Source of the DNA: a phage
DNA length: 64,000 nucleotides
NCBI GenBank assembly: GCA_033580375.1
Contig: GCA_033580375.1_4527.1
Strand: one strand, 5' to 3'
Shown: positions 6,437-46,833 of the stretch, piece by piece
Position numbering within the stretch: position 1 is the first letter of the stretch
Layout of the letters: each line of letters begins with the position of its first letter
Program-made: the position numbers and the translations under genes
Notes under the pieces: model-generated
The model's database searches: none
Told to the model about the DNA's origin: nothing
The model's input: only the letters and a program-made list of their open reading frames with translations

Positions 6437-6440
6437 AAGT

Positions 6441-7693: not shown

Positions 7694-7699
7694 TTTGTT

Positions 7700-7748
7700 C
7701 TCCAGTAGTTGATATGTCTATAATAACACAACTACTGGAGAAGTAAAC
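7700..7748 (-). promoter_or_regulatory. early promoter embedded in 12-bp inverted repeat that can sequester the downstream SD
   Basis: minus GTTTAC-tt-CTCCAGTAGTTG-[loop with TGTTATTAT]-CAACTACTGGAG-aacaaa-ATG; 3' arm contains GGAG of the SD. Confidence 0.6.
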
Positions 7749-8123: not shown

Positions 8124-8185
8124 AATGTTTTCCTCTTGGTTGGTGTAAGTACATCATATCATGCCTAGAGGAAGATGTAAACCCC

Positions 8186-8210
8186 GAAAGGAGACCGAAG
8201 TCTCCTTTTT
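8186..8210. terminator. hairpin terminator (GGAGAC-CGAA-GTCTCC) next to gp41 stop
   Basis: perfect 6-bp stem with tetraloop, T5 run on plus side, weaker U-run on minus side. Confidence 0.45.
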
Positions 8211-8211
8211 A

Positions 8212-9654: not shown

Positions 9655-9663
9655 GATAACTCC

Positions 9664-10026
9664 TTAAAAGAATTTAAATTTTTTCTTGGTTCGTTCATTA
9701 AAAGCTTGTTGTACCTGCATTGTAACACATTTTTCAACATGCGGCGCAAGTTCTGCTTTTCTGTCCTGGTCAAGAACTGCAAAGTCCATTACGATTTTAC
9801 CATCAACCCAGTCTAGTTTTGTAATATAGACTATATGATGAGAACCGTCTTCAAGTGTAATCAGAATCTCTTGAATGACGTTTTCCATTGCTGAACGGAT
9901 AATTTTAAGAGATTCATTAAACACTCGTTCTTTGCGAATGTCTTCCCCTTCCGAAGAAGGGGATTCATCAACGATTTCTAGATTTAAATCATCGAGATTA
10001 TTCATCGAAATCTTCCATTTCGTCAA
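9664..10026 (-). CDS. 40: gp40-like protein (head vertex assembly chaperone)
   Basis: 120-aa ORF in the conserved 41-40-uvsX position; call by synteny only. Confidence 0.45.
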   Translation of the reverse strand: MTKWKISMNNLDDLNLEIVDESPSSEGEDIRKERVFNESLKIIRSAMENVIQEILITLEDGSHHIVYITKLDWVDGKIVMDFAVLDQDRKAELAPHVEKCVTMQVQQAFNERTKKKFKFF

Positions 10027-11170
10027 GGTCGTTTTCTATATCTGCTGCAGATGGAGCATCAGAAGTTTTAACCGGAACTTTAGTTGTTGCTTTGCAATTA
10101 ATAAGGTCGTTAACTGCGTCATCAACTTCTTTAATAGAAGAGATAGCGCCTAGTTTATATTTAGTTTCAATTGCATCTCGGAAAGGTTTGTGTTTAAACA
10201 ACGGTCCCCAGAATTCTACGCAATCAGTAGCTTTAGCACGCCATGATTTCTCTTCACGAATCATTTCACCTGTTTCTTCGTCAAGGAATTCACGAGCATA
10301 CCAACCGGCTTTAGGTTTAACCACAAAACCAATTTCAGTTGCCATTTCTAACAAGCCACTGAATGGGTCAATACCGCCATCAAAATTAACCGTGATCGGG
10401 AAAGTAGATTTCTCTTTAACAGTACGAGATTTTTCTGCTTTCAACGTGAAGTCATAACCGGTCAATTCTGTACCTTCTTTAACCTGACGTTTAGAGATAA
10501 AGAATACAGTGTTAGCAGAGTAAAGAATACCTGTACCACCACCCATAATCTCTTTAGGATATAGTCCACCGATTTCCATTGCTGTATGGTTAATTGCAAC
10601 ACATGGAATATCTTTAATAGTCAGATACGGGGTCACAATACGGAACAGAGATTTAAGTGCCTTAGCACGAGACATATCACCTACGACTTTCTCGTTCAAT
10701 GCATCTTCGGTTTCTTTCTTAGATGCAGTATTACCGATTGAATCGATAAAGATAATAACTTTATCACCGCGTTCAATAGCGTCAAGCTGATTAGTCATAT
10801 CAACTTTAAGTTGTTCGACGGACTGAATTGGTGTGTGAACTACACGGTCTAAATCAACACCCATTGAACGAAAATAAGATTCTGAAGCACCGAATTCTGA
10901 ATCATAGAACAAACAAATTGCATCTTTATATTTCTTCATATACGCTGCAACCATGGTCAGCCCAAACAATGTTTTAAAATGTTTAGAAGGTGCAGCAAAA
11001 ATAGTCAAGCCTGATTGCAATCCTGCATTCAGAGCACCACCTAGTGCAATATTCAACATCGGAATACGAGTAGGGACTTCATCGCGATTATTAAACAGCT
11101 TAGACTTAGTCAAGTCTGCAGTCATTTTAGAAGTAGAAGCTTTAATCAGACGAGATTTTAAATCAGACAT
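9998..11170 (-). CDS. uvsX: recombinase UvsX (RecA-like)
   Basis: MSDLKSRLIKASTSK...RIPMLNIALGG...NHT...WYAREFLDEETGEMIREEKSWRAK nearly co-linear with T4 UvsX. Confidence 0.9.
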   Translation of the reverse strand: MSDLKSRLIKASTSKMTADLTKSKLFNNRDEVPTRIPMLNIALGGALNAGLQSGLTIFAAPSKHFKTLFGLTMVAAYMKKYKDAICLFYDSEFGASESYFRSMGVDLDRVVHTPIQSVEQLKVDMTNQLDAIERGDKVIIFIDSIGNTASKKETEDALNEKVVGDMSRAKALKSLFRIVTPYLTIKDIPCVAINHTAMEIGGLYPKEIMGGGTGILYSANTVFFISKRQVKEGTELTGYDFTLKAEKSRTVKEKSTFPITVNFDGGIDPFSGLLEMATEIGFVVKPKAGWYAREFLDEETGEMIREEKSWRAKATDCVEFWGPLFKHKPFRDAIETKYKLGAISSIKEVDDAVNDLINCKATTKVPVKTSDAPSAADIENDLDEMEDFDE

Positions 11171-11269
11171 TGTATTTTTCCATAGGCATCATTATATTTT
11201 ACTCATGTTTAAAAGATAAGATGATTATATACTAATGATTATACAGCATTTAAAACTTTAAACAGGCTC

Positions 11270-11818
11270 TTAACGAGCCCATTTGATGATTTCTGTAATC
11301 AAATCATTACGTTCGCTTGCATTAAATCCTATAACTTTGTTAGCACCATCATGATTAAGTAATTGATACGTTTGGATTTTGTTATGAATTGCAAACTCTT
11401 CAAAATGTGAAATGACTGTATTAAAACTGAGTGAAGACAAAGTAATAAGATCGTCTTCAAAACTTTCAGTCATTTCGTTACGTGTTAAAATAATTGTGAA
11501 CACGTCATGGTTTTGGCAAAGACGAACATAATCCTGCTCATAAACATCAAGAACCGAGTCCGCATCTTGTCGAATACGTCCATAAACCCAGTTACTAATA
11601 TATCCACGGTCTAACAGATAAATCTTAGTAGGGTCTAAATAATTCAACATCGTTTCGAAACAACCAACTTCATTTCGAGACTTAACATCGAAACGTCCAT
11701 CAACTGTTCGTTTAGGGAAATCAATCTTTACATATCTTTCACTAATTTCCATTATGACATTAATGAAAGTTGTTTTGCCGGCATTATCTGGGCCATCTAC
11801 TAAAATAATTTTAGCCAT
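11270..11818 (-). CDS. thymidylate-kinase-like P-loop nucleotide kinase
   Basis: 182 aa; ILVDGPDNAGKTT Walker A and DRGYISNWVYG resembling the Tmk DR motif. Confidence 0.5.
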   Translation of the reverse strand: MAKIILVDGPDNAGKTTFINVIMEISERYVKIDFPKRTVDGRFDVKSRNEVGCFETMLNYLDPTKIYLLDRGYISNWVYGRIRQDADSVLDVYEQDYVRLCQNHDVFTIILTRNEMTESFEDDLITLSSLSFNTVISHFEEFAIHNKIQTYQLLNHDGANKVIGFNASERNDLITEIIKWAR

Positions 11819-11819
11819 T

Positions 11820-12716
11820 TTATTCCTCGATTACGACATCTTCGTATTTAGGTATATTATACGGCGAAGAAATTAAAGCATTAAAGTAGATGAACTCACC
11901 AAGACCTGGATGGAATACTTCTTCAGGATTTTCGAAATATTGAATCTTCGGACGTCCTTTAAGAATTTGATAGTACTCAGTTTTAGTTGGTTTAAAAATT
12001 CGAATCAGCGCTTCTTCAGGATACTTATTTCTGTCGAAGCTATTATTTGGATCGGTTATATAAAGTGGTTGTCCTAATTGAATTGCACATTCAACCACTT
12101 GTTCAAAATGATAACACGGATCACTAATTCGAAATGGATGAAAAATACCATCTACATGAATAGGAGCCAAATCACCTACAAGACGCTGCATGATGGAAGG
12201 ACGTATAACTTTCTGCGTTACGATAATCTTATTATCTGCGCCAGCGTTAACCAGCACTTCTTTTTGACGTTCATTCAACACAGTAGTTTGAAGTGAACGA
12301 TTAACCGACAACATGTCGGTTTTTAAGAATTCGTCAATATAAAAACGTGGTTTATTAGGGTCTGCAGTGATATTGAAATTGAATTCTACATCAAAAGCGC
12401 CGTCATATCCAGTGATATCTGTGATTAGAAAATCACAATCATAATAAGCAATTAATGAATCAACAACAAATTCATTTTCAGACCAGAAATATTTACGAGT
12501 GTTATACGCGTTATCTTTATACCATAATGGAACAAACTTAAATTCTGGGAAAAGACGTTCACATTCTTTAATATCAGATGCATTACGTGGATATGTAATC
12601 ACATCACCCGGATTAGCACGGTGCAAATGAAGTTGGAAGTTGCCATCCTTAAGGATAGCATACTGTCCAGTTTCATAAGACCGCATACTCAAGATTGGTA
12701 CGCGGAAAATAGCCAT
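11820..12716 (-). CDS. hypothetical protein at the T4 beta-gt position; candidate DNA-modifying transferase
   Basis: 298-aa ORF; no similarity to T4 beta-gt recognisable by eye. Confidence 0.45.
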   Translation of the reverse strand: MAIFRVPILSMRSYETGQYAILKDGNFQLHLHRANPGDVITYPRNASDIKECERLFPEFKFVPLWYKDNAYNTRKYFWSENEFVVDSLIAYYDCDFLITDITGYDGAFDVEFNFNITADPNKPRFYIDEFLKTDMLSVNRSLQTTVLNERQKEVLVNAGADNKIIVTQKVIRPSIMQRLVGDLAPIHVDGIFHPFRISDPCYHFEQVVECAIQLGQPLYITDPNNSFDRNKYPEEALIRIFKPTKTEYYQILKGRPKIQYFENPEEVFHPGLGEFIYFNALISSPYNIPKYEDVVIEE

Positions 12717-13432
12717 TAGTCAAGGAATCCTTTAACATAATCAAAATCACGTTCAAACACATGGGCACTTACCATGGTATGAGTATAATCACCAACTTCT
12801 ACACCGCATTCGTTAGCGATATAATGAAGTAATTTTCCTTGGAGATAAAAATCCAACTGCATAACAACAGCACAGTTCTGAGAACGCATATGACAGTGGG
12901 TATAAAGCTTACCATCACGAATATAATAAGTCACTGAGTCAGTACATGGATATTCAAGTGTTTCATCTGAATCAAGCAAAGCCTGATCAGAACTTTCTAG
13001 AATTTGGAACACAACTCTTCGAGAGTTAGGTTTTTCTTTAAGTTCTTTTAGAAGAGCTGGTAATTGAGCCGCAATGCGAGGACCATAGAAAGTGTTGAAG
13101 TTTGCAGGCAAAGCATCTGATTTTGGTTTAGAAATAAATTTAGCGACATTAGGATATGCCTTAAACGCTTCTTCTGCATCAGTACCACCGGAAATCATAA
13201 ACTTCCAGAAGTCTTCGGCATATTCATAAGATATGCGATTAATACGTGGGTCGGTCATTTTGAATGATGATGGAGTGTCAACAACTACTGTCATAGACCC
13301 AATTTCATTACAACGTCCAATACGAGAATCAGTTACGAATTCTGGGTTTTCTAAAATTTCACGATTGACTGCTTTAAATGCGGTTTGAAAATCTGCGGCT
13401 TTGATATATTTCATTGTGTTATGTTTTCCCAT
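12716..13432 (-). CDS. 42: dCMP hydroxymethylase gp42 (thymidylate-synthase fold)
   Basis: 238 aa; YPCTDSVTYYIRDGKL (catalytic Cys) and HMRSQNCAVVMQLDF resemble T4 gp42/ThyA motifs; syntenic position. Confidence 0.8.
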   Translation of the reverse strand: MGKHNTMKYIKAADFQTAFKAVNREILENPEFVTDSRIGRCNEIGSMTVVVDTPSSFKMTDPRINRISYEYAEDFWKFMISGGTDAEEAFKAYPNVAKFISKPKSDALPANFNTFYGPRIAAQLPALLKELKEKPNSRRVVFQILESSDQALLDSDETLEYPCTDSVTYYIRDGKLYTHCHMRSQNCAVVMQLDFYLQGKLLHYIANECGVEVGDYTHTMVSAHVFERDFDYVKGFLD

Positions 13433-13710
13433 GTTTACCTCAATACAATTTATTATATACTCAATTCGTAAAGCTTATTTGAATTTCTTGGCAATGTTGA
13501 TATAACGTAAAGCTTCAGCATCGATACTTCCAAGAACACTATGAAGAAATGCATCAGCTTAGTATTCTAATTGAACAGGTTCTTTAATCACTTTAGCCGC
13601 TTTGGTTTCAAACAGGCCCATAAGGGCCTTTTTAAGAATTTGTTCGTTAGTGTTCAGTTTCATAGTCAAAATCTCTTCATTAAGTTTATAATTAAAAGCT
13701 TTTCTAGAAA

Positions 13711-14871
13711 TCATTCCGGGTACCTCAAAGCGTCATCAGAGTTAGTTATATCAATAATAGATATGGAGTTTTCTGCTAACCCGTTTTTAGATAATTGACG
13801 TTTGTAATATCTTTCACAATATGTACACGTTGACCCACAGATTTCATTAGCACAATCGAAATCCGGATGTCTGAACCACCTTTTTTCTAAAAAGCCATCT
13901 AACAAAGAGGTTTCAATATTTACTGTATGTGAAAACTCAGTCTCATTTTCAAGAGTGAAAATAGTCTCTAAAGGCTTCCACAGTTCTAACAAATTACCTT
14001 CAAACTTTTCAGAAGCGTATGCTTCAAGAACTTTCAAAATGTAGTCTGTGCTACCTGTACGTCCTGAAACTTTGAATTGAGTGATACCAATATCATTATA
14101 AAGTTTCAAATCTTGAGGACGAACAAAACGAGTTCTCAGCCAGTTAAATGGGTCTGTATCACGAGCTTTAATGCAGTGTTGCATTGGATATCCATTTAAG
14201 GATTTAGCATCATCAGCGGTAACATCAGTACTATGGAAAATATAGCAAGAGTCACGATAACTACAATGTGTTGTATACCCTTTACCAGCATTAGAACAGA
14301 ACTCATTTACAAGAACTTCAAATATTATATTGTTCTTATTGCAAAACTCTGCTGCACGCTTCAGGAAAGAAACTGAACGGTTCTTATGAATTCCACAGCA
14401 GACCTTTTTGATATTATATTGGTCATGCAAGTATTTGATTTGAGTTACGGCATCAACATGTAGAATTGTTGAAACTTCAATCTCAATATCTTTATTGACT
14501 TCACGAACAATTTCCATAACAACAGGGTTAGCGATAGTAATACGCCATACACCTATTGACCAAAGATACTGAACATAATCCTGAATAGCTTTCTTCTTCC
14601 ACTCAACTAGTTCTCTTTTTGAACCAGGATTTATCGTGTTGAGTGTATAGTTAAAGCAAATACCTAATTCGTTACAACGTTTAACATAGTCTTCTAACAT
14701 TTTTTTGTCAACGTCAGGAAGCCTAAAATCAGGTCTGGCTGCTACAAAAGCCATTTCTCTTGTAGAGCCATATACTTCGTTTATCAAGCTATTAGGATAA
14801 GTTTTATTGAGCTCTACGATTTTATCAAGAAGAGCTAAATCAAAATTCGTTCCGATTTTAAAAGTATTCAT
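13711..14871 (-). CDS. hypothetical Cys-rich protein, function unknown
   Basis: 386 aa; C-terminal CANEICGSTCTYC cluster plus further conserved-looking Cys; lies between gene 42 and the sugar-nucleotide genes. Confidence 0.5.
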   Translation of the reverse strand: MNTFKIGTNFDLALLDKIVELNKTYPNSLINEVYGSTREMAFVAARPDFRLPDVDKKMLEDYVKRCNELGICFNYTLNTINPGSKRELVEWKKKAIQDYVQYLWSIGVWRITIANPVVMEIVREVNKDIEIEVSTILHVDAVTQIKYLHDQYNIKKVCCGIHKNRSVSFLKRAAEFCNKNNIIFEVLVNEFCSNAGKGYTTHCSYRDSCYIFHSTDVTADDAKSLNGYPMQHCIKARDTDPFNWLRTRFVRPQDLKLYNDIGITQFKVSGRTGSTDYILKVLEAYASEKFEGNLLELWKPLETIFTLENETEFSHTVNIETSLLDGFLEKRWFRHPDFDCANEICGSTCTYCERYYKRQLSKNGLAENSISIIDITNSDDALRYPE

Positions 14872-14929
14872 TTTTTTGCATCTCGCGTTAATTGATGCGA
14901 TGGGTTTTTTGCAGGTCTTACTTAAATTA

Positions 14930-15331
14930 TTATAGATTCGGTTTATACGATTTAAATGTTTCGAATTCGCCTTTATTCATAAGAGCTTTGAATTCGTCAG
15001 GACGCATAGCTTTGTCGTCGATAATCCAATCATATACTGGTTTATGTGTTAGCAAATTATGGTACTTCAAACCAATGTTTTCCAAGTTCTGAATCAGACT
15101 TGGGAGAATGTCAATTGCTATACGACCAGGACCTACTGACTTCATACCACGAGCAGTGTAAAGCGTTATGGTATGCCCTGCATCATACAGGGCATTAATG
15201 GCGGTCACCATTTCGACGTCTGGTTTGAAGTTCGCGTAATCACGATTGTTATTCCATTCCGTGATGCAATCATCGACATCAAAACAAAGATTAAGCATGT
15301 TTTCTACACGGCGCATTAGATTCGTTCCCAT
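14930..15331 (-). CDS. small HAD-superfamily sugar-phosphate phosphatase (KdsC/GmhB-like)
   Basis: 133 aa; FDVDDCI DxD nucleophile motif near N-terminus, TARG motif II. Confidence 0.55.
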   Translation of the reverse strand: MGTNLMRRVENMLNLCFDVDDCITEWNNNRDYANFKPDVEMVTAINALYDAGHTITLYTARGMKSVGPGRIAIDILPSLIQNLENIGLKYHNLLTHKPVYDWIIDDKAMRPDEFKALMNKGEFETFKSYKPNL

Positions 15332-17001
15332 TGATGAGTGATATCGCCACCGATTGGACGATAGGAAACACCAGTTTCTTTATCAGTTAGTACCCATTTA
15401 CCAGGATTTTTTGTAATCAGAGTAGCCGTTACAGGTTCTGCTACGTCATAACTAATAGAGCCGTCTTGAAGTACACGACCCATGTTACGTAATTGCTTAG
15501 TCAGAAGTTCCATACCTTTATAATATGCGGCTACCGCTTTAAGTGGATTATTCTTGAAATAACCACCTAATGCAATCCAGATAATCGCCACTGCCAAATG
15601 ATGATACTCGTTAAACGAACTCATCTTTCCATATTTGTAAACTAATGGATTGATGTTAATAGTCACATTACAAGTTGTTTCGTCAATAGTAAACTGTCCC
15701 CAGGTCGGATTAGCATTGAATTCATCATAACCTGAAACAGCATAAAGCACTTTAGCTTCATCGTACAATTTTGGCCCGTAAATCTTGGTTTCACCAAAAT
15801 ATCCACGAGGGTCGATAAACTTGACTTCGCCGTTATCAGTAATCATAGTATTACTGAAGTTCGGGTCACCGTGAATAACAGAGTACTGTCCCTGAGAACG
15901 GTTATGATAACGAATAAGGTGTTCTAAAGCTTGTTTCAACATTGGCTTCAGACGTCCAATCTTAGTGTAGTTCACATGTGTGATTTTACCAAATGAATCA
16001 ATCAATGGTTGAATGCTTTCACAACGATCAATAACTTTCGTATAGAATTCTTTAGTGAAATCACGACGAACAGTTTCAGGACTTACAAAATAAATGTCTG
16101 TGCTGAATTTCAGTGCATCTAAAATTGCATCAACAATTTGTGGACGAGCAAGACTTGATTTGGATTTAATATATTCAAATGCTGGCTTACCTTTAATGCG
16201 TTCCATTTCAAAGTTATTTTCATTAACAGAAACTAACTGAGGAACTGAATCTGATTTTACTTTCAAATACCATGAAATCTCATCTTTTTGAAGAGCTCGT
16301 CCCTGTTCTGTTAATGCGAATTTAGTTACAGTTTCTTCACCAATTTCAACTGCATTAAAACTACGATTAAGTTCACGAACTTCATGAGCCTTTTCAAGTT
16401 TAGGCATATCACCTAAATCAATTAGATTCATAAGCTCTGATTTATTGAATGCACTGCCGTAAAGGAATTCTACAAAATCACGTCCTTTACAGTATTCGTG
16501 AATTTCCTCGTCAGTAGAACCCATGTAGAATTCCCAGTCTTTGAACTGATAAATTCCTACAACATTACCGCCTGTTGAACCTACGTTAGTGATATTTTCA
16601 CCATCGAAATTATATCGACATTCATCACCCTTAACATAGATTGCGTTAACATTCCAAGACCATGAACCAAAATCTGGAATAATATCACACCAGTTAACAA
16701 CTACGTTATGGCCGTCTAAATCTTTATGTAATTTAGCAAGAGCATAAGCAGAACCATACGCTTCATCAACTGTACGAATAGTCACATTGAACCCTTCTTG
16801 CTCACAATAAGCTCGAACAGTTTCAGCAAATTTTGAATGAACTACTACAATAATTTCATCTGCACCAAGGTCAGAATAAATTGTATACAAATTGCTCAGA
16901 ATAGTGTCTTGTTTATAGTTCACAAGAACTTTTGGAATATGGTGAGTAATTGGATATAAACGAGTTGCCAGTCCAGCACCAAGAATAACAGCTTTTTTCA
17001 T
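15316..17001 (-). CDS. bifunctional sugar-1-phosphate nucleotidyltransferase (N-term) / APH-type sugar kinase (C-term)
   Basis: 561 aa; N-term ILGAGLATRLYPIT (RmlA/GalU-like G-x-G-x-R), C-term HGDPNFSN Brenner motif and FIDPRG as in choline/aminoglycoside-kinase fold. Confidence 0.65.
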   Translation of the reverse strand: MKKAVILGAGLATRLYPITHHIPKVLVNYKQDTILSNLYTIYSDLGADEIIVVVHSKFAETVRAYCEQEGFNVTIRTVDEAYGSAYALAKLHKDLDGHNVVVNWCDIIPDFGSWSWNVNAIYVKGDECRYNFDGENITNVGSTGGNVVGIYQFKDWEFYMGSTDEEIHEYCKGRDFVEFLYGSAFNKSELMNLIDLGDMPKLEKAHEVRELNRSFNAVEIGEETVTKFALTEQGRALQKDEISWYLKVKSDSVPQLVSVNENNFEMERIKGKPAFEYIKSKSSLARPQIVDAILDALKFSTDIYFVSPETVRRDFTKEFYTKVIDRCESIQPLIDSFGKITHVNYTKIGRLKPMLKQALEHLIRYHNRSQGQYSVIHGDPNFSNTMITDNGEVKFIDPRGYFGETKIYGPKLYDEAKVLYAVSGYDEFNANPTWGQFTIDETTCNVTININPLVYKYGKMSSFNEYHHLAVAIIWIALGGYFKNNPLKAVAAYYKGMELLTKQLRNMGRVLQDGSISYDVAEPVTATLITKNPGKWVLTDKETGVSYRPIGGDITHQWERI

Positions 17002-17042
17002 GTTGAAGTCCTCATTGGTAAGTAGGAGTATTGTACACTATT

Positions 17043-17186
17043 CTAGTTAAAGCATTCATACTTTGCTTGTAGTCCAATCATAATCCATCCAATTACAAGT
17101 GTTGGAATCATTACTGGAGCCGTTAAGCTCCAGTAGATAGTCATGACAAGCATCAATAGTAAAAGTCCTATTGTTATTGCTTTCAT
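17043..17186 (-). CDS. small hydrophobic peptide at the T4 imm position
   Basis: 47 aa, below track threshold; ATG with GAGG SD, entirely hydrophobic. Confidence 0.3.
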   Translation of the reverse strand: MKAITIGLLLLMLVMTIYWSLTAPVMIPTLVIGWIMIGLQAKYECFN

Positions 17187-17818
17187 TGCTCGCCTCGTAA
17201 CATGGCACCTAGAGCACCGCCAGGGTGGAACTTAAGGAAATCATTAGAGGTAAATCCACGTTCAGACGAAAGGTTGATAGCAAACGTATCGATAAGCGCT
17301 AACAACAATGTAGTGGACATGGTCGGAGCTAAAGAGTTCTCGTCAACTTCTACCGCGATACCGGTACAGAACGTATAATCAAAAAGAGCTTCGTATTCTT
17401 GCGGAATGTCAGGGTTACAATGTAACAGAATCTGTTTAACCTGAGGACGAATCATACGAAGATGTTTAGCAACACCTATCATTTCTTCAGTCTTACCAGA
17501 ACGACTGATGTGAACTAATACATCATTAGGTGCAATAAATCCTGCGTCGCCATGAGAATAATGCCCAGTGTTCAAATACATGCTAGGAATACCGAGTGAA
17601 GCAAATGTCTCAGAAGCTTTAGTTGCAATATTAGCATTCTTACCAACACCTGTAATAATTACACGACTTTCATAATTACTCAGTCCAGGGCGTCGAAGAG
17701 TTTCAAGAATAGCATTATAACGAGCAGGGTTTTGACTAATTACTTTGGCCATAGCGGCCAAAGAAGAAGCTTGTTTTATGATTGCGTCAATAGCGATAGT
17801 AATAGGAGTAGTTTTCAT
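17183..17818 (-). CDS. SIS-domain sugar-phosphate isomerase (KdsD/GutQ-like arabinose-5-phosphate isomerase, single domain)
   Basis: 211 aa; ITGVGKNANIATKASETFASLG...HGDAGFIAPNDVLVHISRSGKTEE matches KdsD-type SIS motifs. Confidence 0.65.
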   Translation of the reverse strand: MKTTPITIAIDAIIKQASSLAAMAKVISQNPARYNAILETLRRPGLSNYESRVIITGVGKNANIATKASETFASLGIPSMYLNTGHYSHGDAGFIAPNDVLVHISRSGKTEEMIGVAKHLRMIRPQVKQILLHCNPDIPQEYEALFDYTFCTGIAVEVDENSLAPTMSTTLLLALIDTFAINLSSERGFTSNDFLKFHPGGALGAMLRGEQ

Positions 17819-25960: not shown

Positions 25961-26195
25961 CCTCGATACATGCTTCAGCCATTTTAAGAATAGAGCCAGG
26001 AGTATCGTTGTCCATTATATTAAAGCTAAATTCAATAGCCCAGTCGGTACAGACATGAACGGCTTTAACTTCATTGCCTTCAACGCGTAATGGCTCAATC
26101 CAATACTTGATGGTGTTCTCGAATCCATCATCATCTTTAACGTCTATTTCAGCTTCAAGTCCGAGCCCAGCATTGTTAAATTCATCTAAAGTCAT
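25938..26195 (-). CDS. hypothetical protein
   Basis: 85-aa acidic ORF. Confidence 0.45.
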   Translation of the reverse strand: MTLDEFNNAGLGLEAEIDVKDDDGFENTIKYWIEPLRVEGNEVKAVHVCTDWAIEFSFNIMDNDTPGSILKMAEACIEDAYNDED

Positions 26196-27211
26196 TGTGT
26201 TGCCTCAATATAAAGTTCGTTGGAATATTTGACCAGCGCTTCTCTGTCTTCGTCTGAGATATCTGGAATCGCGTCAATATATTCTTTAATGATATCTTGA
26301 AGTGATTTAATCTCGATTTCCTGGTCGTCATCAGATTCAACACTGTTATCAACTTTAGAAACCATACGAAGAGAGTGAACTACTTTTTCAAGTTCAGATT
26401 CAAACTTAGTCAACTCTGAATCAATTTCTGATACTATAACACGTACGGCTAGATTAGTATAATCAGAATAATTGATTTTGCCTTTAAACGGATAAGTGAT
26501 TCGTCGATGCCATGTTGTTTCATTAGGAATAAATTCCATACGTTCAACATCAGTGTCAAATACCCAGAATCCGCGCGGGTCGTTCTCGTCACCTGCAGTA
26601 AGGGTCCATGGTGTCCCAATATATTTGACGTTAGCAGCTTCAGAGATTGTGTGGAAGTGGCCAGACCAGACTTGTTTATAGGTCTTTAAGAAATCAGGTT
26701 CAAGCCCATGAGACTTCATTCCTTTATAGAAATAAAAGCCATTCAGTTCCCAGTGCCCAACACAATATGCCGCAGAAGAAGTCTTGATGTGCTCTAAGAT
26801 TTCACCTGTATTTTCTTCACACATCCACGGAACGATATCAATCAGACATCCGTCAAAATCTACAGTAGTTGGATGTTCGTAAATAGTAAAGTTTTCAAAT
26901 TGAGTTAACAATTCAGAAACAGTGTTAGGTGTTATTGTATTCTTAAACGCCATGTCATGGTTTCCTATCGTGACATGAACGTGAATGCCTGCTTTAGAAA
27001 TCATATCAACGATTTCACGATTGAATTCCATTGTACGATGTGTAATTGCTTTACGGACGTCAAACCAATCACCGTACTGAATCCAAGTTTTAATCCCGTG
27101 TTTCTTAGAGTATTCAATTGCTTGACGAATACCATCACGTTGAATATCTTGAACCCATGGGTCATCTTGTTTGACTCCGATATGGAAGTCGCCTAAGTGC
27201 AAAATTTTCAT
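26192..27211 (-). CDS. 47: recombination endonuclease subunit gp47 (Mre11/SbcD-like phosphoesterase)
   Basis: 339 aa; MKILHLGD.H.G, GNHD, GHWE phosphoesterase motifs; near-identical to T4 gp47. Confidence 0.9.
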   Translation of the reverse strand: MKILHLGDFHIGVKQDDPWVQDIQRDGIRQAIEYSKKHGIKTWIQYGDWFDVRKAITHRTMEFNREIVDMISKAGIHVHVTIGNHDMAFKNTITPNTVSELLTQFENFTIYEHPTTVDFDGCLIDIVPWMCEENTGEILEHIKTSSAAYCVGHWELNGFYFYKGMKSHGLEPDFLKTYKQVWSGHFHTISEAANVKYIGTPWTLTAGDENDPRGFWVFDTDVERMEFIPNETTWHRRITYPFKGKINYSDYTNLAVRVIVSEIDSELTKFESELEKVVHSLRMVSKVDNSVESDDDQEIEIKSLQDIIKEYIDAIPDISDEDREALVKYSNELYIEATQ

Positions 27212-27247
27212 ATTATTTCCTCATTAGTTAATTCATTCTATCATCCG

Positions 27248-27457
27248 TTTATAAAGCAAAAAAAAAAGAACTCCGAAGAGTTCCTATCCACATAGTACAC
27301 CGTACAGAGGCTCATTTGAACTTTTAAATCGAATGGGCTTGTGCGTAATAGTTCCTTCGGCTTTAGCTTTATCATAAGACTCTTTAAAACGTCTCATTCT
27401 TTCTGCTTTGCCTTTACGGATTTTATCGAAATTTTCAGAGGTCAGGTCGTTCGTCAT
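27248..27457 (-). CDS. small basic protein (ORF not in supplied track)
   Basis: 69-codon ATG ORF with GAGAGG SD, checked triplet by triplet; 3' end runs through the terminator hairpin. Confidence 0.3.
27257..27282 (-). terminator. rho-independent terminator (GAACUC-UUCG-GAGUUC + U10)
   Basis: UUCG tetraloop hairpin followed by ten U on minus-strand RNA, upstream of gene 47. Confidence 0.65.
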
Positions 27458-27496
27458 GCATAAGCACCTCTCAGAAAATGCCTAAATCGATTTCTC

Positions 27497-27718
27497 TCAT
27501 CGTTTCCACCATTTCTTAACTTGAAATGAATCGACCCACACGAGTTGTTTTGGGTCTGCCTTTACAATAGGCGGACAAATTTCTGTAATAGAACCGTCGT
27601 GATATTCCTTTTCAGAAATTTTAACACAAAGAGGACCACCCAATTTAATGGTGAACCCTGCGTTCAGCTTCAGACGTTTAAATTTTGTTTGAACTAGCGC
27701 CATTAATGATGTCCTCAA
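27497..27718 (-). CDS. hypothetical protein
   Basis: 73-aa ORF. Confidence 0.4.
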   Translation of the reverse strand: MRTSLMALVQTKFKRLKLNAGFTIKLGGPLCVKISEKEYHDGSITEICPPIVKADPKQLVWVDSFQVKKWWKR

Positions 27719-28001
27719 TAGCCTGACGAGTAGTAATCCACTGGATTTTAATTAACTTGTCATTATATGGTTGTCGTAGAATATCCCGAGATTTCTTAAT
27801 AGCATATTCGTAAGCTTCGAAGTTGTTTTGAATTGCTGCTTCTTGAGCATGTGCATAAAGACGGTTTAGTTCAAAACGATTCTTTTTAAGAATCTTTTCA
27901 GATTTTTTACGTGCTTCAGCTTCATTTTTCTTTTGGATTTCTTGTAGCATTTTAGCCACTGCATCTTCTGCTTCTTTATTTTCAATAATCTCGGTAGTCA
28001 T
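27678..28001 (-). CDS. hypothetical protein
   Basis: 107-aa ORF, helical/charged. Confidence 0.45.
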   Translation of the reverse strand: MTTEIIENKEAEDAVAKMLQEIQKKNEAEARKKSEKILKKNRFELNRLYAHAQEAAIQNNFEAYEYAIKKSRDILRQPYNDKLIKIQWITTRQAIEDIINGASSNKI

Positions 28002-28002
28002 A

Positions 28003-28212
28003 TTATCTCATTAAATTAAAATAAAAACGTCCGTCCTCTTCAATACAGAACTCGTACTCAACTGGAGTCCCATTTATCGAAAATGACACGTCATGTGGGT
28101 TCAAAGGGTCGATGTCAAAATTAATTTTAAATTCTCGACCCAACAGTTTTACCAAATAAGGGATTGCTTCGTCAAAAGGTTCTTCTAAGTAGTTAGAGAT
28201 ATCAATTGTCAT
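28003..28212 (-). CDS. hypothetical protein (start trimmed to internal ATG to avoid 95-nt overlap with gene 55)
   Basis: ORF 28003..28296 overlaps gp55 3' end; internal Met at 28212. Confidence 0.35.
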
Positions 28213-28777
28213 CCTCATATAAAAAATCCAAACTAGGTGAATCGCTAACAACTTCCTTCTTTTCAGCCCCAGGAGCTTTATAAGCGGATTCTTCATAATG
28301 CGTCATTTTATCGTAGATGTCTTGAATAAACGTTTCATCTACCAACGCTACCATATCATCGTCATGACTGTCGTAGACGTTATGAACGAAGTAACTATAT
28401 TTCTTTGCAACTTCCTTACGTTCTTTTTTGATACGTTGGACAAAAGCATTAAAACAAGCTCGAGTTATGTATGCATGTGGGTTATTGTACTTAGTTTCGT
28501 CGAAATTATGAAGTCCCTTAATAGAGGCTTCAATCCCATCTGCAATCATCTCCTGCTTCCAAGACTGGGTATATCCTGAAAAGTTGAAACGTTTGGACAG
28601 GCCTTCGGCGATAAGCATAATTGCTAAACCGATGGTATCATTCTGACGAATAATTTTGTTTGGGTCTTTATTATTTAAGAGCTCCTTTTTCCACTCGATT
28701 ATAGCGGCGAGAAGCTCTTTATTATTCACATAGTTATTTTTAGGTTTTTGTTCAGTCATAAGTACCTCTTGGCTCAA
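28202..28777 (-). CDS. 55: late-transcription sigma factor gp55
   Basis: [77 protein letters not shown] matches T4 gp55. Confidence 0.9.
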
Positions 28778-28914
28778 TTCATAGGTCTATTATATCATAA
28801 TATTTAGAGACCTATCTTAAAGCACGAGATACTATCAAAGATACGTAACTTTCATAAAGTTGACGACTTAAAATTCACCAAACTTTTCTTCGGTTATAGC
28901 AATTCGAGATAGTT

Positions 28915-29142
28915 TCATTCTAATTCCTTCGCTGCAAATAAGGCAGCATCCAACGAATCAAATTGGTCAACGAAATCAATATTCAACGCATCGTCAACCG
29001 TAGCATATAACCACCATTGTTTGAATTCGTATTCTAGAATAAATCCAGGACCTTCAATCTGAGGAAGACCTAGGCTATTTGTACCAACTTCGTAACCAGC
29101 TAGACGCAGGTCATTAATCAAAGTTTCTGTTAATACGCTCAT
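28915..29142 (-). CDS. hypothetical protein
   Basis: 75-aa ORF. Confidence 0.4.
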   Translation of the reverse strand: MSVLTETLINDLRLAGYEVGTNSLGLPQIEGPGFILEYEFKQWWLYATVDDALNIDFVDQFDSLDAALFAAKELE

Positions 29143-32013: not shown

Positions 32014-32484
32014 TTAATCATGTTTCCACACCCCATCGGTATTTGACCAAAGTCGCTGATTATCTGATCCTCGCCATAGCTTTTTGGTCGGAAGATTTTT
32101 CTCATACTTCCCATCAATAATAACATCAACATATTTAAGCATTTCTAGCTGTTTAATATCTTCAAACTTATATCCTGTCCACAACCAAATGCTTTTATTG
32201 GGATAAAGATTTTTAATAGTTTGAACCACAGAATGAATAACATCTCGGTTGTCAGGATAGAGAGGGTCTCCTCCAGATATAGTTAATCCTTCTATATAAT
32301 CATTATTCAAACATTCAATTAATTGTTCTAGTGTCTCTCCGGTGAATGGAGCACCATTTCTAGCGTTCCATGTTGATTTATTATAACACCCTTCACATTT
32401 ATGCAAACACCCTGTAACGAAAAGAACGACCCTACAACCAGGGCCATTAACAAAATCGCAAGGATAAAATCTATCATAATTCAT
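32014..32484 (-). CDS. nrdG: anaerobic ribonucleotide reductase activating protein NrdG
   Basis: 156 aa; Cys cluster near N-terminus (GCLHKCEGCYN) typical of NrdG; same length as T4 NrdG. Confidence 0.85.
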   Translation of the reverse strand: MNYDRFYPCDFVNGPGCRVVLFVTGCLHKCEGCYNKSTWNARNGAPFTGETLEQLIECLNNDYIEGLTISGGDPLYPDNRDVIHSVVQTIKNLYPNKSIWLWTGYKFEDIKQLEMLKYVDVIIDGKYEKNLPTKKLWRGSDNQRLWSNTDGVWKHD

Positions 32485-34298
32485 TGGTGTTTAACCCTAT
32501 GCATGATTTCTTTATTTTTACCGAGATTAAATCCGCGTTCGTTCGGATTTCCAAGATAACCGCATGTTCTTCTTATGGTGTTCATCTTTTTAGGATCAGT
32601 TTCTCCGCAAACTGAACAAACAAATCCATTTTCAGTAGGAGTCATTTCATGAGTACTTCCACATGTAAAACATTTATCTACTGGCATATTAACACCAAAA
32701 TAATCTAAATGTTGTGCAGCATAATCCCAGACAGCCTCAAGTCCCTTTAAATTGTTTTTCATATCAGGAAGTTCAACATAAGAAATGTGACCACCTGTCG
32801 CAATGAAATGATATGGCGCTTCACGAGAAATCTTTTCAAACGGAGTAATATTTTCTTCTACTGAAACGTGGAAACTATTAGTGTACCAGCCTTTATCGGT
32901 AACATCTTTTACACTTCCGTATTTTTCTGTATCAAGTTTACAGAAGCGATAACAAAGGTTTTCAGCAGGAGTCGAATATAAACTAAAAGCAAATCCAGTT
33001 CTTTCAGTCCACTGTTTAAGATGAGCATTCATTTTAGTTAAAATTTCTTGCCCAATATCACGACCGACAAGAATATTCAATTCGTGAATACCAATGTATC
33101 CCAAAGACACTGAACTTCTACCGTTTTTAAATAACTCAATTATGTCGTCATCTGGTTTAAGACGAACCCCGAATGCACCTTCTTGGTAAAGAATAGGAGC
33201 AACAGTCGCTTTAACTCCTTTTAAGGAACTAATTCTACACATCAAAGCTTCAAAACATAAATCCATTCGTTCATTGAATAATTCAACAAATTTCTGTTCA
33301 TTGAACTGTGTTCCAATATAAGAATCTAATGCGATACGAGGAAGATTCAGCGTTACAACACCGAGATTATTACGCCCATCAAGAATTTCATTACTGGTTG
33401 AATCTTTCCATACGCTCAAGAAACTACGGCAACCCATTGGAGAAACTGGAACTGAAGAACCGGTAATAACTTTGTTATTCTTAACCGAAATGATGTCAGG
33501 ATACATTCTTTTGCTTGCACATTCTAACGCAAGCTGCTTAATATCATAGTTCGGGTCGTCTTTATAAAGATTAACACCTTCTTCAATGAACATAACAAGT
33601 TTAGGGAAAATAGGAGTTATTCCATCACGACCAAGACCTTTAATCCGATTTTTCAGAATTGCTTTCTGAATCATTCGTTCAGTCCAATCGGTTCCCGTAC
33701 CAAATGTAATTGTTACAAAAGGCGTTTGTCCATTTGAACTAAAGAGAGTATTTACTTCATATTCATAAGCTTGGAATGCATCGTATACGTCTTTTTCTGT
33801 TTTAGATTGAGCATAATTCAACGCATCAGCGATTTGCCATTTTTCTGCATCCTCAATATGTTTTGCATAGGTGCGTTTAACATAAGGAGAAAGTACTTTA
33901 TCTACATTAGCAAAAGTCGTTCCGCCGTATTGATGTGAAGCAACTTGTGCAGTAATTTGTGCCATAATTGCAGTAGCAACACCAATCGATTTAGGCGTTT
34001 CAATTTGAGCATTGCCTAATTTAAAACCATTCTCAAGCATCCCCTTTAAATCGACTAAACAGCAATTGGTAAACGGAAGAGCAGGAGAATAATCAATATC
34101 ATGCATATGAATGATTCCGCTTTCATGCGCATTCATAATAAAAGACGGGACCATATTTTTGGCAATGTGCTTAGACACAATACCAGCCATAAGGTCCCGT
34201 TGAGTTGGAAAAACACGAGAATCTTTATTAGCATTCTCGTTCAAAAGATCTTTATTAGTTTTATAAATTAATCCTTCAATTTCTTTTTCAATTTTCAT
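32481..34298 (-). CDS. nrdD: anaerobic ribonucleoside-triphosphate reductase NrdD
   Basis: 605 aa; C-terminal glycyl-radical motif RTCGYLG and Zn-ribbon cysteines; uninterrupted ORF. Confidence 0.9.
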   Translation of the reverse strand: MKIEKEIEGLIYKTNKDLLNENANKDSRVFPTQRDLMAGIVSKHIAKNMVPSFIMNAHESGIIHMHDIDYSPALPFTNCCLVDLKGMLENGFKLGNAQIETPKSIGVATAIMAQITAQVASHQYGGTTFANVDKVLSPYVKRTYAKHIEDAEKWQIADALNYAQSKTEKDVYDAFQAYEYEVNTLFSSNGQTPFVTITFGTGTDWTERMIQKAILKNRIKGLGRDGITPIFPKLVMFIEEGVNLYKDDPNYDIKQLALECASKRMYPDIISVKNNKVITGSSVPVSPMGCRSFLSVWKDSTSNEILDGRNNLGVVTLNLPRIALDSYIGTQFNEQKFVELFNERMDLCFEALMCRISSLKGVKATVAPILYQEGAFGVRLKPDDDIIELFKNGRSSVSLGYIGIHELNILVGRDIGQEILTKMNAHLKQWTERTGFAFSLYSTPAENLCYRFCKLDTEKYGSVKDVTDKGWYTNSFHVSVEENITPFEKISREAPYHFIATGGHISYVELPDMKNNLKGLEAVWDYAAQHLDYFGVNMPVDKCFTCGSTHEMTPTENGFVCSVCGETDPKKMNTIRRTCGYLGNPNERGFNLGKNKEIMHRVKHQ

Positions 34299-40379: not shown

Positions 40380-41372
40380 TCATTTCAGTAAAGTTACTTC
40401 GGAGATTTCCTCCCAACCATCTTTATCAGTTGAAATAAAATCTGCTACATAAAGAGCCGTACGTAATGATACATTGCGAAGACGAGATATGTTAGCCTTC
40501 ATCCAGGACAATGCTTTGTACGTTTCTGCATCCGTCAGGCCACGTTTCTGCATCATGTCAGTAGATAATATTACATCTTCAACTCGGACCATAATCTCTT
40601 CATTAGAGTGTACTCCAAGGTCCAAATACACTGAACGAGATACTAAAGCTTGAAGGTGTGGAGCAAGTTTCGAACCGCGTTCTAACTCTTTATCGATATC
40701 AACGTTTGTAATGAAAACGATAGTACCTTCAAACTCAAATTCTTTATCTATACCCTTATCATCAAGATAAGATGATGCAGTGCTCCAGCAAACTTTGCGT
40801 TTATCGCCAGTATCTAATGCTGCTTTAAGAAGGTTCAAGATGTCCATATCAGAGAATACGTCAACGTCATCGATTAAGAGAACGCTGTCTGCATCACGGT
40901 TGAGCCAAAGTTGTTCGTAAAGGCCAATACCAGAGATTTTGCCATTAATGCTTTTGTATTTGATGAAACCATTATCATTAGCATTATTAAGCGCTTTATC
41001 CAGAGAATATGTCTTACCAATACCGGCTGCACCTGAAATAATGAGTGAACGAATTTTGCCATCGATAATGCCATTCGTCATCATGTTCATTACTTTAAAG
41101 CGTTTGTTGATACGAGTTTTCATATCTTCAGCGTTTTCAACAACTGCAACTGGTGATGTCTCAACTCCTTCCATTACGATGTCTGATTTGAAGACCCATA
41201 CTCCACGTTCAGAACCATCAATCATAACGAAAATTTTACCGTCACCTAAGTGGGAACATTCAGGATTAAGCTTTGCCGGGAACCATGTCTTTGTGGCAAC
41301 ATAAGAACCAGAGATTTCGTTATTACGATAGATACCTTTTTTGATTTGAACGTTGAACATTTTATTCTCCAA
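40380..41372 (-). CDS. P-loop NTPase (AAA-like)
   Basis: 330 aa; Walker A SGAAGIGKT and Walker B LLIDDVD. Confidence 0.55.
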   Translation of the reverse strand: MENKMFNVQIKKGIYRNNEISGSYVATKTWFPAKLNPECSHLGDGKIFVMIDGSERGVWVFKSDIVMEGVETSPVAVVENAEDMKTRINKRFKVMNMMTNGIIDGKIRSLIISGAAGIGKTYSLDKALNNANDNGFIKYKSINGKISGIGLYEQLWLNRDADSVLLIDDVDVFSDMDILNLLKAALDTGDKRKVCWSTASSYLDDKGIDKEFEFEGTIVFITNVDIDKELERGSKLAPHLQALVSRSVYLDLGVHSNEEIMVRVEDVILSTDMMQKRGLTDAETYKALSWMKANISRLRNVSLRTALYVADFISTDKDGWEEISEVTLLK

Positions 41373-46339: not shown

Positions 46340-46833
46340 AATAATGGTTCCCAATCAACAATCACAATTTCTAGTTTAGTGGAATATGTATCAAGAATTT
46401 CTTCGATAACGTCCCAGTTTCCACCACCGATACCTGCACCAATTCTTGGCATATAAATTACAGGCTTTGTTATCTTATTCTTTCCGAATTCATTTAATTC
46501 TATTATACAATTCATTAAAGCAGAGTACTCAAAATTAGGTCCCGGCTCAAACTGTGTATAAAGATTAAAGCAATAAGCTTTATGGGTCTTAAAATATTTT
46601 TCATAAACTGAATAAGACCCGAGTTTAGACTCGTCTCCGAATTCGGTTTGAAGTTTATCAGCTTCCAGAATTTTTGGATAAGCCTTTGCTAATTGTCCTG
46701 CCACACCAGCGCCCATTGTATGAAAACAATTACACCCATGAGCAATATTGTTACCTTTAGAAAACAGGGCGACAATATCGCCCTTGATATAGTTTTTAAT
46801 CACTTGCTGCAAGTCCTCTAGTATAAGAGTCAA
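46336..46833 (-). CDS. macro-domain protein (ADP-ribose binding / hydrolase fold)
   Basis: 165 aa; AHGCNCFHTMGAGVAGQLAKAYP and MPRIGAGIGGG resemble macro-domain glycine-rich motifs. Confidence 0.55.
   Translation of the reverse strand: MTLILEDLQQVIKNYIKGDIVALFSKGNNIAHGCNCFHTMGAGVAGQLAKAYPKILEADKLQTEFGDESKLGSYSVYEKYFKTHKAYCFNLYTQFEPGPNFEYSALMNCIIELNEFGKNKITKPVIYMPRIGAGIGGGNWDVIEEILDTYSTKLEIVIVDWEPLL

Follow-up and report, generated by a model that had tools for sequence, protein, structure and literature searches.

The slot between genes 47 and 55 in which phage T4 carries its alpha-glucosyltransferase gene (a-gt) is empty in the Mosigvirus studied here, and we consider it very probable that the whole hydroxymethylcytosine (hmC)-glucose system has been replaced in this lineage by one producing arabinosyl-5-hydroxycytosine. 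The DNA analysed, a stretch of 64,000 nucleotides hereafter called the window, represents 64 kb of a ~168-kb genome, and the genome-wide absences reported below for this phage rest on its relatives. Queried with 53 kb (positions 1-29000 and 39001-64000), the window was ~97-98.6% identical at the nucleotide level to Mosigvirus genomes, among them phiE142, ESh27, phiC120, PhAPEC2 and RB69 (~97-98% identical); judged from its sequence, it is a Mosigvirus, an RB69-like T-even phage. It has already been published that glucosyl-hmC is replaced by arabinosyl-5-hydroxycytosine (Thomas 2018, PMC6024577; Lee 2026, PMC13326640): the arabinose modification was reported in 2018 (PMC6024577) and the 5-hydroxycytosine pathway in 2025-2026 (PMC13326640), and the RB69 genome annotation has had an empty a-gt slot since 2003. 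The present analysis adds the clean placement of the window in the arabinosyl-5-hydroxycytosine group, a corrected count of the genes lying between 47 and 55, and independent, structure-based support for a GT-B glycosyltransferase in the position of the beta-glucosyltransferase gene (b-gt).

The interval from the start codon of gene 47 to the stop codon of gene 55 spans exactly 27212-28201. With its flanking genes, it contains the following features:

26192-27211 (-): gene 47, SbcD-like recombination endonuclease subunit (PHROG 100, E=1.6e-135; Pfam Metallophos)
27235-27258 (-): MotA-box middle-promoter-like site, TGCTTTA-11 nt-TAGAAT (consensus match only)
27256-27285 (-): predicted intrinsic terminator, 8-bp stem, UUCG tetraloop and U10 run (terminator scan and hairpin centroid fold)
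27284-27457 (-): a-gt.2 homolog, 57 aa (Pfam DUF5486, E=6.4e-27; PHROG 2140, E=2.1e-32)
27497-27703 (-): a-gt.3 homolog, 68 aa from the ATG at 27703 (PHROG 1648, E=6.4e-34)
27678-28001 (-): a-gt.4 homolog, 107 aa (Pfam DUF2654, E=1.6e-27; PHROG 951, E=9.5e-37)
28003-28212 (-): a-gt.5 homolog, 69 aa (Pfam DUF5491, E=1.3e-12; PHROG 1169, E=2.8e-24)
28202-28759 (-): gene 55, late-transcription sigma factor (PHROG 234, E=3.9e-68)

The preliminary description of this DNA had counted only three small ORFs here, of 73, 107 and about 70 aa, and had overlooked the 57-aa a-gt.2 homolog; the interval holds four conserved genes, a-gt.2 to a-gt.5, all of which match family profiles (E=1e-12 to 1e-37) and follow one another as in T4. 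The 107-aa ORF was confirmed as the a-gt.4 homolog, with its DUF2654 match. The 73-aa ORF is a real gene, a-gt.3, but it reaches that length only if read from an upstream TTG; its start is most likely the ATG at 27703, giving 68 aa, because the PHROG 1648 match sets in only at residue 7 of the longer reading and the a-gt.3 of RB69 has 68 aa. In the PhAPEC2 record the a-gt.3 homolog is not annotated. The ORF of about 70 aa corresponds to the 69-aa a-gt.5 homolog, which does not end at 28201 but extends to 28212, sharing 11 nt with the 3' end of gene 55. Identities to the T4 and RB69 proteins were, respectively, 75.8% and 100% for gp47, 63.5% and 96.5% for a-gt.2, ~69% and 98.5% for a-gt.3, 55.5% and 98.1% for a-gt.4, 45% and 100% for a-gt.5, and 89.2% and 99.5% for gp55.

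No ORF in 27212-28201 is big enough for a-gt (400 aa in T4), and T4 a-gt found no tblastn match within the interval, which bears out the earlier statement that the gene is missing between 47 and 55. Where T4 and Klebsiella phage PKO111 have a-gt, in the gap from a-gt.2 to gene 47, the window has no such gene and only 72 bp (a-gt.2 stop at 27284, gene 47 start at 27211), holding the terminator, the promoter-like site and a ribosome-binding site. T4 a-gt does sit between 47 and 55, as had been stated, but the T4 interval also holds 47.1, mobB and a-gt.2 to a-gt.5; by sequence comparison with T4, what is missing here is exactly 47.1, a-gt and mobB. Since a-gt.2 to a-gt.5 have been retained without a-gt, they are independent of it.

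A terminator had also been noticed in the interval, and it is recognisable at 27256-27285 on the minus strand as a UUCG hairpin with a U run. The hairpin, AGGAACUC-UUCG-GAGUUCUU, begins at the a-gt.2 stop codon and is followed by the U run; RB69 has a matching hairpin with a shorter U run (6 vs 10 here), and in PhAPEC2 a terminator was annotated at the matching site by ARNold. The fold energy of 76 nt around this short hairpin was no better than that of shuffled sequences (z=0.37), and we assigned the terminator because of its hairpin-plus-U-run architecture and not because of thermodynamic exceptionality; the element probably acts as a terminator. The middle-promoter pattern searched, TGCTTNA-N11-13-TANNNT, gave 15 matches in the window against an expectation of 4.0 +/- 2.3; of the 15, 11 lie on the transcribed strand. 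The site at 27235-27258 may act as middle promoter for gene 47. MotA-box units comparable to those of the window were found before T4 47.1/47 and around PKO111 a-gt, and a sigma-70 consensus scan of the intergenic stretch before gene 47 gave nothing useful. Neither motA nor asiA falls within the window, but PhAPEC2 has the two genes.

What would make the glucosyltransferases dispensable is found elsewhere in the window. Near-identity to RB69 places the cytosine-arabinosylation machinery at 11270-17818, with the following genes:

11270-11818 (-): RB69 gp45 ortholog, thymidylate-kinase-like nucleotide kinase, first gene of the cluster (97.8% identical to RB69 gp45)
11820-12716 (-): putative arabinosyltransferase 1 (AraT1), RB69 gp46:47 ortholog, GT-B fold, at the T4 b-gt position beside gene 42
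12716-13432 (-): predicted 5-hydroxy-dCMP synthase, RB69 gp48 ortholog, replacing T4 gene 42 (Pfam Thymidylat_synt, E=2.4e-15)
13711-14871 (-): RB69 gp50 ortholog, peptidase-U32-like (Pfam Peptidase_U32, E=7e-11; 98.5% identical to RB69 gp50)
14930-15316 (-): RB69 gp51 ortholog, proposed sugar-phosphate phosphatase (96.1% identical to RB69 gp51)
15316-17001 (-): RB69 gp52:53 ortholog, N-terminal sugar-1-phosphate nucleotidyltransferase and C-terminal kinase (Pfam NTP_transferase, E=8e-10; weak kinase-family matches)
17183-17818 (-): arabinose-5-phosphate isomerase homolog, RB69 gp55 ortholog (Pfam SIS, E=9.6e-10; 97.6% identical to RB69 gp55)

The window gp48 is 100% identical to RB69 gp48 over 238 aa, but its identity to T4 gp42 is just 22%, compared with 76-89% to T4 for the genes that flank the 47-55 interval. 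The kinase role of gp45 comes from a fold assignment and the phosphatase role of gp51 is a proposal (both PMC13326640, Table 1); Pfam gave nothing significant for the gp45 ortholog and no match for the gp51 ortholog. More generally, the individual activities of the arabinose-supply proteins are predictions (PMC13326640), and the roles given here to single genes of the arabinose pathway are to be read as probable. The gp52:53 fusion, which is proposed to make NDP-arabinose, is 99% identical to RB69 gp53 plus gp52 across the frameshift of the RB69 record, and the PhAPEC2 and RB69 records name the gp55 ortholog arabinose 5-phosphate isomerase.

In the pathway that we favour, the gene-42 counterpart, gp48, would hydroxylate dCMP to 5-hydroxy-dCMP, the phage isomerase, phosphatase and kinase/nucleotidyltransferase fusion would provide NDP-arabinose, and GT-B arabinosyltransferases, AraT1 in the window and the gp3 ortholog outside it, would attach one or two arabinofuranose units at the 5-hydroxyl. 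The glucosyltransferases would thus be dispensable because the phage builds a different modified cytosine. In PhAPEC2 a second arabinosyltransferase, gp003 (gp3/ORF003c ortholog), and the gp1 dNMP kinase are present, both at loci beyond the window, and PhAPEC2 gp003 had no match in the 64-kb window. Mono- or di-arabinosyl-5-hydroxycytosine has been shown in virion DNA of RB69 (PMC13326640), and by analogy the DNA of the window's phage probably carries the RB69-type modification.

It is very unlikely that the sugar alone was swapped, with gp48 acting as a dCMP hydroxymethylase and arabinosyl-hydroxymethylcytosine as the modified base. Thomas et al. 2018 did name the RB69 modification ara-hmC (PMC6024577), and gp48 has a thymidylate-synthase fold with the equivalents of E. 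coli ThyA N177D and L143E, as in T4-type hydroxymethylases. However, LC-MS, 18O2 labelling and flavin analysis have established that RB69 gp48 makes 5hodCMP and not hydroxymethyl-dCMP (PMC13326640): the base fragment in MS/MS has an m/z of 128.05 and not 142.06, NMR has the arabinose joined to C5 via oxygen, expression of gp48 leads to 5hodC with 18O taken from O2, and gp48 contains a flavin cofactor (all PMC13326640). The low identity of gp48 to T4 gp42 points in the same direction. The base that accepts the sugar in RB69 is 5-hydroxycytosine rather than hydroxymethylcytosine (PMC13326640), and hence it is not the sugar alone that was altered.

AraT1, encoded at 11820-12716, has a GT-B fold. 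Compared with GT-B (GT4-like) structures, including T4 a-gt (PDB 1Y6F) and the glycosyltransferase of phage HY126 (PDB 9IQZ), its identity was 8-12%, and since 27 other structures rank above a-gt, AraT1 is a relative within the GT-B superfamily but no ortholog of a-gt or b-gt. It is also shorter (298 aa) than a-gt (400 aa). The fold comparison alone was informative in this case: Pfam had no match for AraT1, and a profile of its homologs against all PDB sequences returned only noise (E of at least 0.07). By fold, AraT1 and gp3, the latter encoded outside the window, resemble many bacterial GT4 enzymes at least as closely as they do a-gt.

To search for glucosyltransferases we used T4 a-gt, T4 b-gt, RB32 ba-gt and PKO111 a-gt as tblastn queries against the 64-kb window and the complete PhAPEC2 genome. 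For a-gt, b-gt and ba-gt alike, no match improved on E=0.006 in the window or on E=0.075 in PhAPEC2 as a whole, while the positive control, T4, scored 838 (a-gt) and 717 bits. The whole-genome check proposed earlier, carried out here on the relative PhAPEC2, thus revealed no homolog, and the absence of b-gt was confirmed in both the window and PhAPEC2, with the GT-B protein AraT1 at the b-gt position. The gene adjoining the gene-42 counterpart in the window resembles neither T4 b-gt (Pfam T4-Gluco-transf, PF09198) nor the T2/T6-type ba-gt. Pfam AGT (PF11440), which matches T4 a-gt at E=2.9e-260, matched 0 of the 16 different window proteins scanned; our absence call is based on tblastn with positive controls. 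A glucosyltransferase homolog elsewhere in the genome had been named as the finding that would speak against the loss; none was found in the window or in PhAPEC2, but there are GT-B superfamily relatives, namely AraT1 within the window and gp3 beyond it.

Two weak a-gt matches were rejected. With permissive tblastn (word size 2), residues 211-295 of a-gt aligned to 40995-41234 (E=0.006), within an ORF at 40380-41372 that is a homolog of NrdC.10, also present in T4, with weak Pfam AAA/STAND-NTPase and HTH matches. Residues 18-86 aligned to 58328-58507 (E=0.013; E=0.075 against PhAPEC2), which belongs to a homolog of e.5, a gene that T4 has too and that falls in no Pfam family; this is chance or generic similarity.

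Relocation of a-gt or of another glucosyltransferase beyond the window, with hmC still glucosylated, appears extremely unlikely. About 100 kb of the genome lies beyond the window, and accessory genes of T-even phages do move, imm and imm.1 being placed differently in PhAPEC2 and T4. On the other hand, the PhAPEC2 genome, which is complete, gave no match to a-gt, b-gt or ba-gt, and RB69 is reported to carry none of the three (PMC6024577; PMC13326640). Moreover, a-gt homologs were found in 657 of 50,697 phage records, in identity bands fitting Tequatrovirus and Klebsiella phages, and b-gt homologs in only 126; on these sequence matches, neither distribution can hold the ~135 Mosigvirus records. 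Finally, gp48 is identical to the 5-hydroxy-dCMP synthase, and therefore hmC, the glucose acceptor, would not form.

The conclusion that hmC glucosylation has been replaced, already drawn in the preliminary description, thus holds, with no a-gt, b-gt or ba-gt homolog and with RB69-type replacement genes in the window. The same description took the empty slot, together with the missing b-gt, as an independent sign of the replacement. Taken by itself, such a slot is weak evidence: in phages such as CC31, Moon and PS2, a-gt is missing although homologs of both b-gt and ba-gt are encoded (PMC6024577, Table 1).

That the gap is a recent deletion or an assembly artefact of this sequence alone is hardly credible: the similar UUCG-hairpin and MotA-box units on both sides of a-gt in T4 and PKO111 could support a recombinational deletion, but the RB69 junction is base-for-base alike except for the length of the U run, and the 30 records listed of the 147 covering at least 80% of a 3-kb query span 2998-3181 bases against 3001 in the query and therefore leave no room, in those 30, for a 1.2-kb gene. 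The extra 180 bases seen in some relatives (p000v, LF82 series) proved to be ORF072c, between 55 and 55.1 and outside the interval.

The type of cytosine hypermodification determines which restriction, CRISPR and type IV defences a T-even phage evades or triggers, and it also sets its ability to recombine with T4-type relatives. Recognising genomes such as this one therefore matters for the choice of phages in therapy and for DNA cloning and sequencing.

The layout of the interval, with its empty a-gt slot, is shared by the window with RB69 and PhAPEC2. The PhAPEC2 arrangement from 47 to 55 is identical to that of the window, and RB69 has in common with it the order 47, terminator, a-gt.2, a-gt.3, a-gt.4, a-gt.5, 55, with 97.2% nucleotide identity over the interval. 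The RB69 proteins gp47, a-gt.5 and gp48 are 100% identical to those of the window and the other cluster proteins 96-99%. The two genomes differ in that gp46:47 and gp52:53 are single intact ORFs in the window and frameshifted in the RB69 record, where the gp46/47 split has been put down to sequencing error (PMC13326640), and in that RB69ORF072c, between 55 and 55.1, is absent from the window.

T4, by contrast, makes glucosyl-hmC with gp42, a-gt and b-gt, whereas the window has no a-gt or b-gt homolog. T4 nevertheless has a-gt.2 to a-gt.5 (45-69% identical) and genes 47 (76%) and 55 (89%) in the same order and on the same strand as the window, with a UUCG hairpin directly after the a-gt.2 stop and a MotA-box unit before 47.1/47, as in the window. 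Between the a-gt.2 hairpin and gene 47, however, T4 holds mobB, a-gt and 47.1 (~2.2 kb), and the window 72 bp. In Klebsiella phage PKO111 (Jiaodavirus) the order is 55, an a-gt.5-like gene, DUF2654 (a-gt.4), two small ORFs, which are counterparts of a-gt.3 and a-gt.2 by position only, and then 47; hairpin and MotA-box units again stand at the boundaries, and the slot is occupied by an a-gt 66% identical to that of T4, without mobB or 47.1. A unit of this kind stands on either side of a-gt in T4 and PKO111, and Mosigvirus has a single one, its hairpin abutting a-gt.2 and its promoter-like site abutting 47. We tentatively suggest, as a possibility that is less likely than not, that the slot is a cassette site bounded by a repeated unit of UUCG-hairpin terminator and MotA-box promoter. 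If so, recombination between regulatory repeats would let T-even phages acquire and drop DNA-modification genes cleanly, which would account for the arabinosylating lineage shedding a-gt with its neighbours undisturbed. PKO111 shows the slot to be used for a-gt in a second genus, and among the lineages examined it is empty only in the arabinosylating one.

In the T4 record the alpha-glucosyltransferase gene (a-gt) lies, as the preliminary description states, between genes 47 and 55, in the order 47.1, a-gt, mobB, a-gt.2, a-gt.3, a-gt.4, a-gt.5. The genes of the corresponding region here are all on the minus strand and follow the T4 order (41, uvsX, ..., 43, regA, 62, 44, 45, 46, 47, ..., 55, nrdH, nrdG, nrdD), and the interval 27212-28201 equals exactly the gap between gene 47 and gene 55. 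The absence of a-gt from this interval was confirmed, since 27212-28201 holds neither an ORF able to encode a 400-aa enzyme nor any tblastn similarity to T4 a-gt; the gene inventory had to be corrected, as there are not three small ORFs but four conserved small genes, with family matches from E=1.3e-12 to 6e-34:

26192-27211, minus strand: gene 47 (PHROG SbcD-like, E=1.6e-135)
27284-27457, minus strand: a-gt.2 homolog, 57 aa (DUF5486, E=6e-27)
27497-27703, minus strand: a-gt.3 homolog, 68 aa from an ATG backed by the family alignment, 73 aa from an upstream TTG (PHROG 1648, E=6e-34)
27678-28001, minus strand: a-gt.4 homolog, 107 aa (DUF2654, E=1.6e-27)
28003-28212, minus strand: a-gt.5 homolog, 69 aa (DUF5491, E=1.3e-12), sharing an 11 nt overlap with gene 55
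28202-28759, minus strand: gene 55 (PHROG late sigma factor, E=3.9e-68)

The four small proteins share 45-69% identity with the T4 proteins of the same name and 96.5-100% with those of RB69; for gp47 and gp55, identity to the T4 proteins is 76% and 89%.

Megablast of window 26000-29000, 1-25000 and 39001-64000 against 50,697 phage records returned full-length matches at 97-98.6% identity, among them phiE142, ESh15/ESh27, phiC120, PhAPEC2, ATK47, p000v and RB69; the three records opened (PhAPEC2, RB69 and p000v) all belong to the genus Mosigvirus (Straboviridae, Tevenvirinae). Because none of the matching records, among all those searched, is identical to the window, the phage is, as judged from these alignments, a further isolate of a well-sampled group. 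Many matches differ in length by ~180 bases owing to the presence or absence of RB69ORF072c, a 270-nt ORF found in RB69, p000v and the LF82-series and missing from PhAPEC2 and from window 28760-28914, the gap between gene 55 and the 55.1 homolog. As for other T4 genes, the homing endonucleases segF, segA, mobB and mobC, as well as dam, are unannotated at the corresponding places of PhAPEC2 (window ~2880-11800; 32014-34298, nrdG/nrdD), its genes 56-61 gap is annotated with a small opposite-strand ORF only, and no DNA methyltransferase appears in the PhAPEC2 feature tables examined.

The glucosyltransferases were then searched by tblastn with T4 a-gt, T4 beta-glucosyltransferase (b-gt), the T2-type beta-alpha-glucosyltransferase (ba-gt) of RB32 and the a-gt of PKO111. 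None of the four queries gave a significant match within the 64-kb window. The best a-gt matches, the nrdC.10 homolog (E=0.006) and the e.5 homolog (E=0.013), were rejected, as T4 also has both genes; the latter (57992-58615), in which no Pfam family was found, resembles the N-terminal part of T4 a-gt at 27.5% over 69 aa, which we judged to be chance. In the complete PhAPEC2 genome, assembled from five pieces and searched as a stand-in for this phage outside its window, nothing was better than E=0.075 (T4 control, 838 and 717 bits). Moreover, a-gt homologs occur in 657 phage records (502 at >=90% identity, 143 at 60-80% and 10 below 60%), in bands that on sequence identity correspond to Tequatrovirus, Klebsiella phages and a few outliers, and b-gt homologs in 126 only, 34 of them named Escherichia; on these counts, neither distribution can hold the ~135 Mosigvirus records matching the window at 95-99%. 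RB69 has likewise been reported to lack glucosyltransferase homologs by Thomas et al. 2018 (PMC6024577) and Lee et al. 2026 (PMC13326640).

An empty a-gt slot is, by itself, an insufficient indication that glucosylation of hydroxymethylcytosine (hmC) has been replaced, since several relatives of T4 glucosylate without a-gt, relying on b-gt plus ba-gt (PMC6024577). The conclusion of the preliminary description was nevertheless right, and can be refined: the acceptor base has probably changed as well as the sugar. In T4, uvsX and gene 42 flank segA and b-gt, and genes 42 and 43 flank imm and imm.1, whereas window 11270-17818 carries orthologs of RB69 gp45-gp55 instead:

First gene of 11270-17818, minus strand: thymidylate-kinase-like protein, 97.8% identical to RB69 gp45
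11820-12716, minus strand: 298-aa protein without a Pfam family
12716-13432, minus strand: thymidylate-synthase homolog, 100% identical to RB69 gp48 over 238 residues
Within 11270-17818, minus strand: U32-peptidase-like protein; small putative phosphatase
15316-17001, minus strand: nucleotidyltransferase/kinase fusion, 561 aa
Within 11270-17818, minus strand: arabinose-5-phosphate isomerase homolog with a SIS domain

In Mosigvirus, arabinose-pathway genes occupy the 42-43 interval; in the annotation of the genus imm and imm.1 lie between sp and dmd, at window ~6440-7120 as predicted by offset from PhAPEC2. The thymidylate-synthase homolog is only 22% identical to T4 gp42. Its RB69 counterpart, gp48, is a flavin-containing enzyme that turns dCMP into 5-hydroxy-dCMP, the oxygen coming from O2. 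In RB69 DNA, 5-hydroxy-deoxycytidine bears alpha-Araf and beta-Araf-3-alpha-Araf, and a base fragment of mass 128.05 rules out hydroxymethylcytosine (PMC13326640); the modification had first been described as arabinosyl-hmC (Thomas et al. 2018, PMC6024577). Both 11820-12716 and 15316-17001 are single intact ORFs, whereas in the RB69 reference record a frameshift splits each of them, into gp46/gp47 and gp52/gp53, with 98-99% tblastn identity across the frame change. The intact ORFs lend weight to the published attribution of the gp46/47 split to sequencing error, and point to an error of the same kind for gp52/53. Outside the window, PhAPEC2 is annotated with a phospho-2-dehydro-3-deoxyheptonate aldolase (133,842-132,842) that adjoins cd and has no T4 or RB69 counterpart in the annotation note. 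It may conceivably be connected with the arabinose pathway, because a related aldolase, KDO-8-phosphate synthase, uses arabinose 5-phosphate.

The 298-aa protein, putative arabinosyltransferase 1 (AraT1), takes the position that b-gt has in T4; the 58 homologs collected for it come without exception from T4-like phages or metagenomes, and a Pfam domain is present in none. From its structure, predicted after alignment of 27 of them (pLDDT 93.8, pTM 0.87), it is a superfamily relative of a-gt and not its ortholog. An a-gt or b-gt homolog elsewhere had been named as contrary evidence; neither the window nor complete PhAPEC2 holds one, but that wording needs qualifying, since this remote structural 'homolog' is present and belongs to the arabinosylation cluster. 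Biochemical reconstitution of the initial transfer of arabinose, by gp46:47, is not yet on record for any phage (PMC13326640). As all the findings agree with the annotation of RB69 and the genus and with the literature, the feature is already known.

The empty a-gt slot, with its cassette-like boundary, may reflect either loss of the gene or its never having been gained. The ~2.2 kb that in T4 comprise 47.1, a-gt and mobB are missing, and only 72 bp separate the a-gt.2 stop from the start of gene 47. The strong terminator noticed there is real as architecture, hairpin plus U run, and ARNold calls one at the equivalent site of PhAPEC2:

27256-27285, minus strand: terminator architecture, 8-bp stem with a UUCG tetraloop starting from the a-gt.2 stop codon, then ten U
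27235-27258, minus strand: MotA-box promoter-like site, TGCTTTA, 11 nt, TAGAAT

On the transcribed strand the junction reads TAG-GAACTC-TTCG-GAGTTC-T10-GCTTTATAAACGGATGATAGAAT-...-GAGGAAATAATATG; the U run (27258-27267) has 10 residues vs 6 in RB69, the rest being identical. As a consensus match only, the second element fits the pattern of T4 MotA-dependent middle promoters. TGCTTNA-N11-13-TANNNT occurs 15 times in the window (4.0 +/- 2.3 expected), 11 of them on the transcribed strand (for example, minus strand, 11856-11880, 17030-17054, 27235-27258 and 46497-46522); several matches lie directly upstream of genes, including one within the 3' end of AraT1, ahead of the gp45-like kinase.

The Mosigvirus junction has a single hairpin-plus-MotA-box unit, whereas in T4 a similar unit follows a-gt.2 and a second one follows a-gt. 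The Klebsiella phage PKO111 (Jiaodavirus), which lacks mobB and 47.1 at this place, has in the slot an a-gt 66% identical to T4's, with a unit on both sides. These repeated units flanking the gene in T4 and PKO111 suggest that a-gt may be a cassette-like gene bounded by repeated regulatory units.
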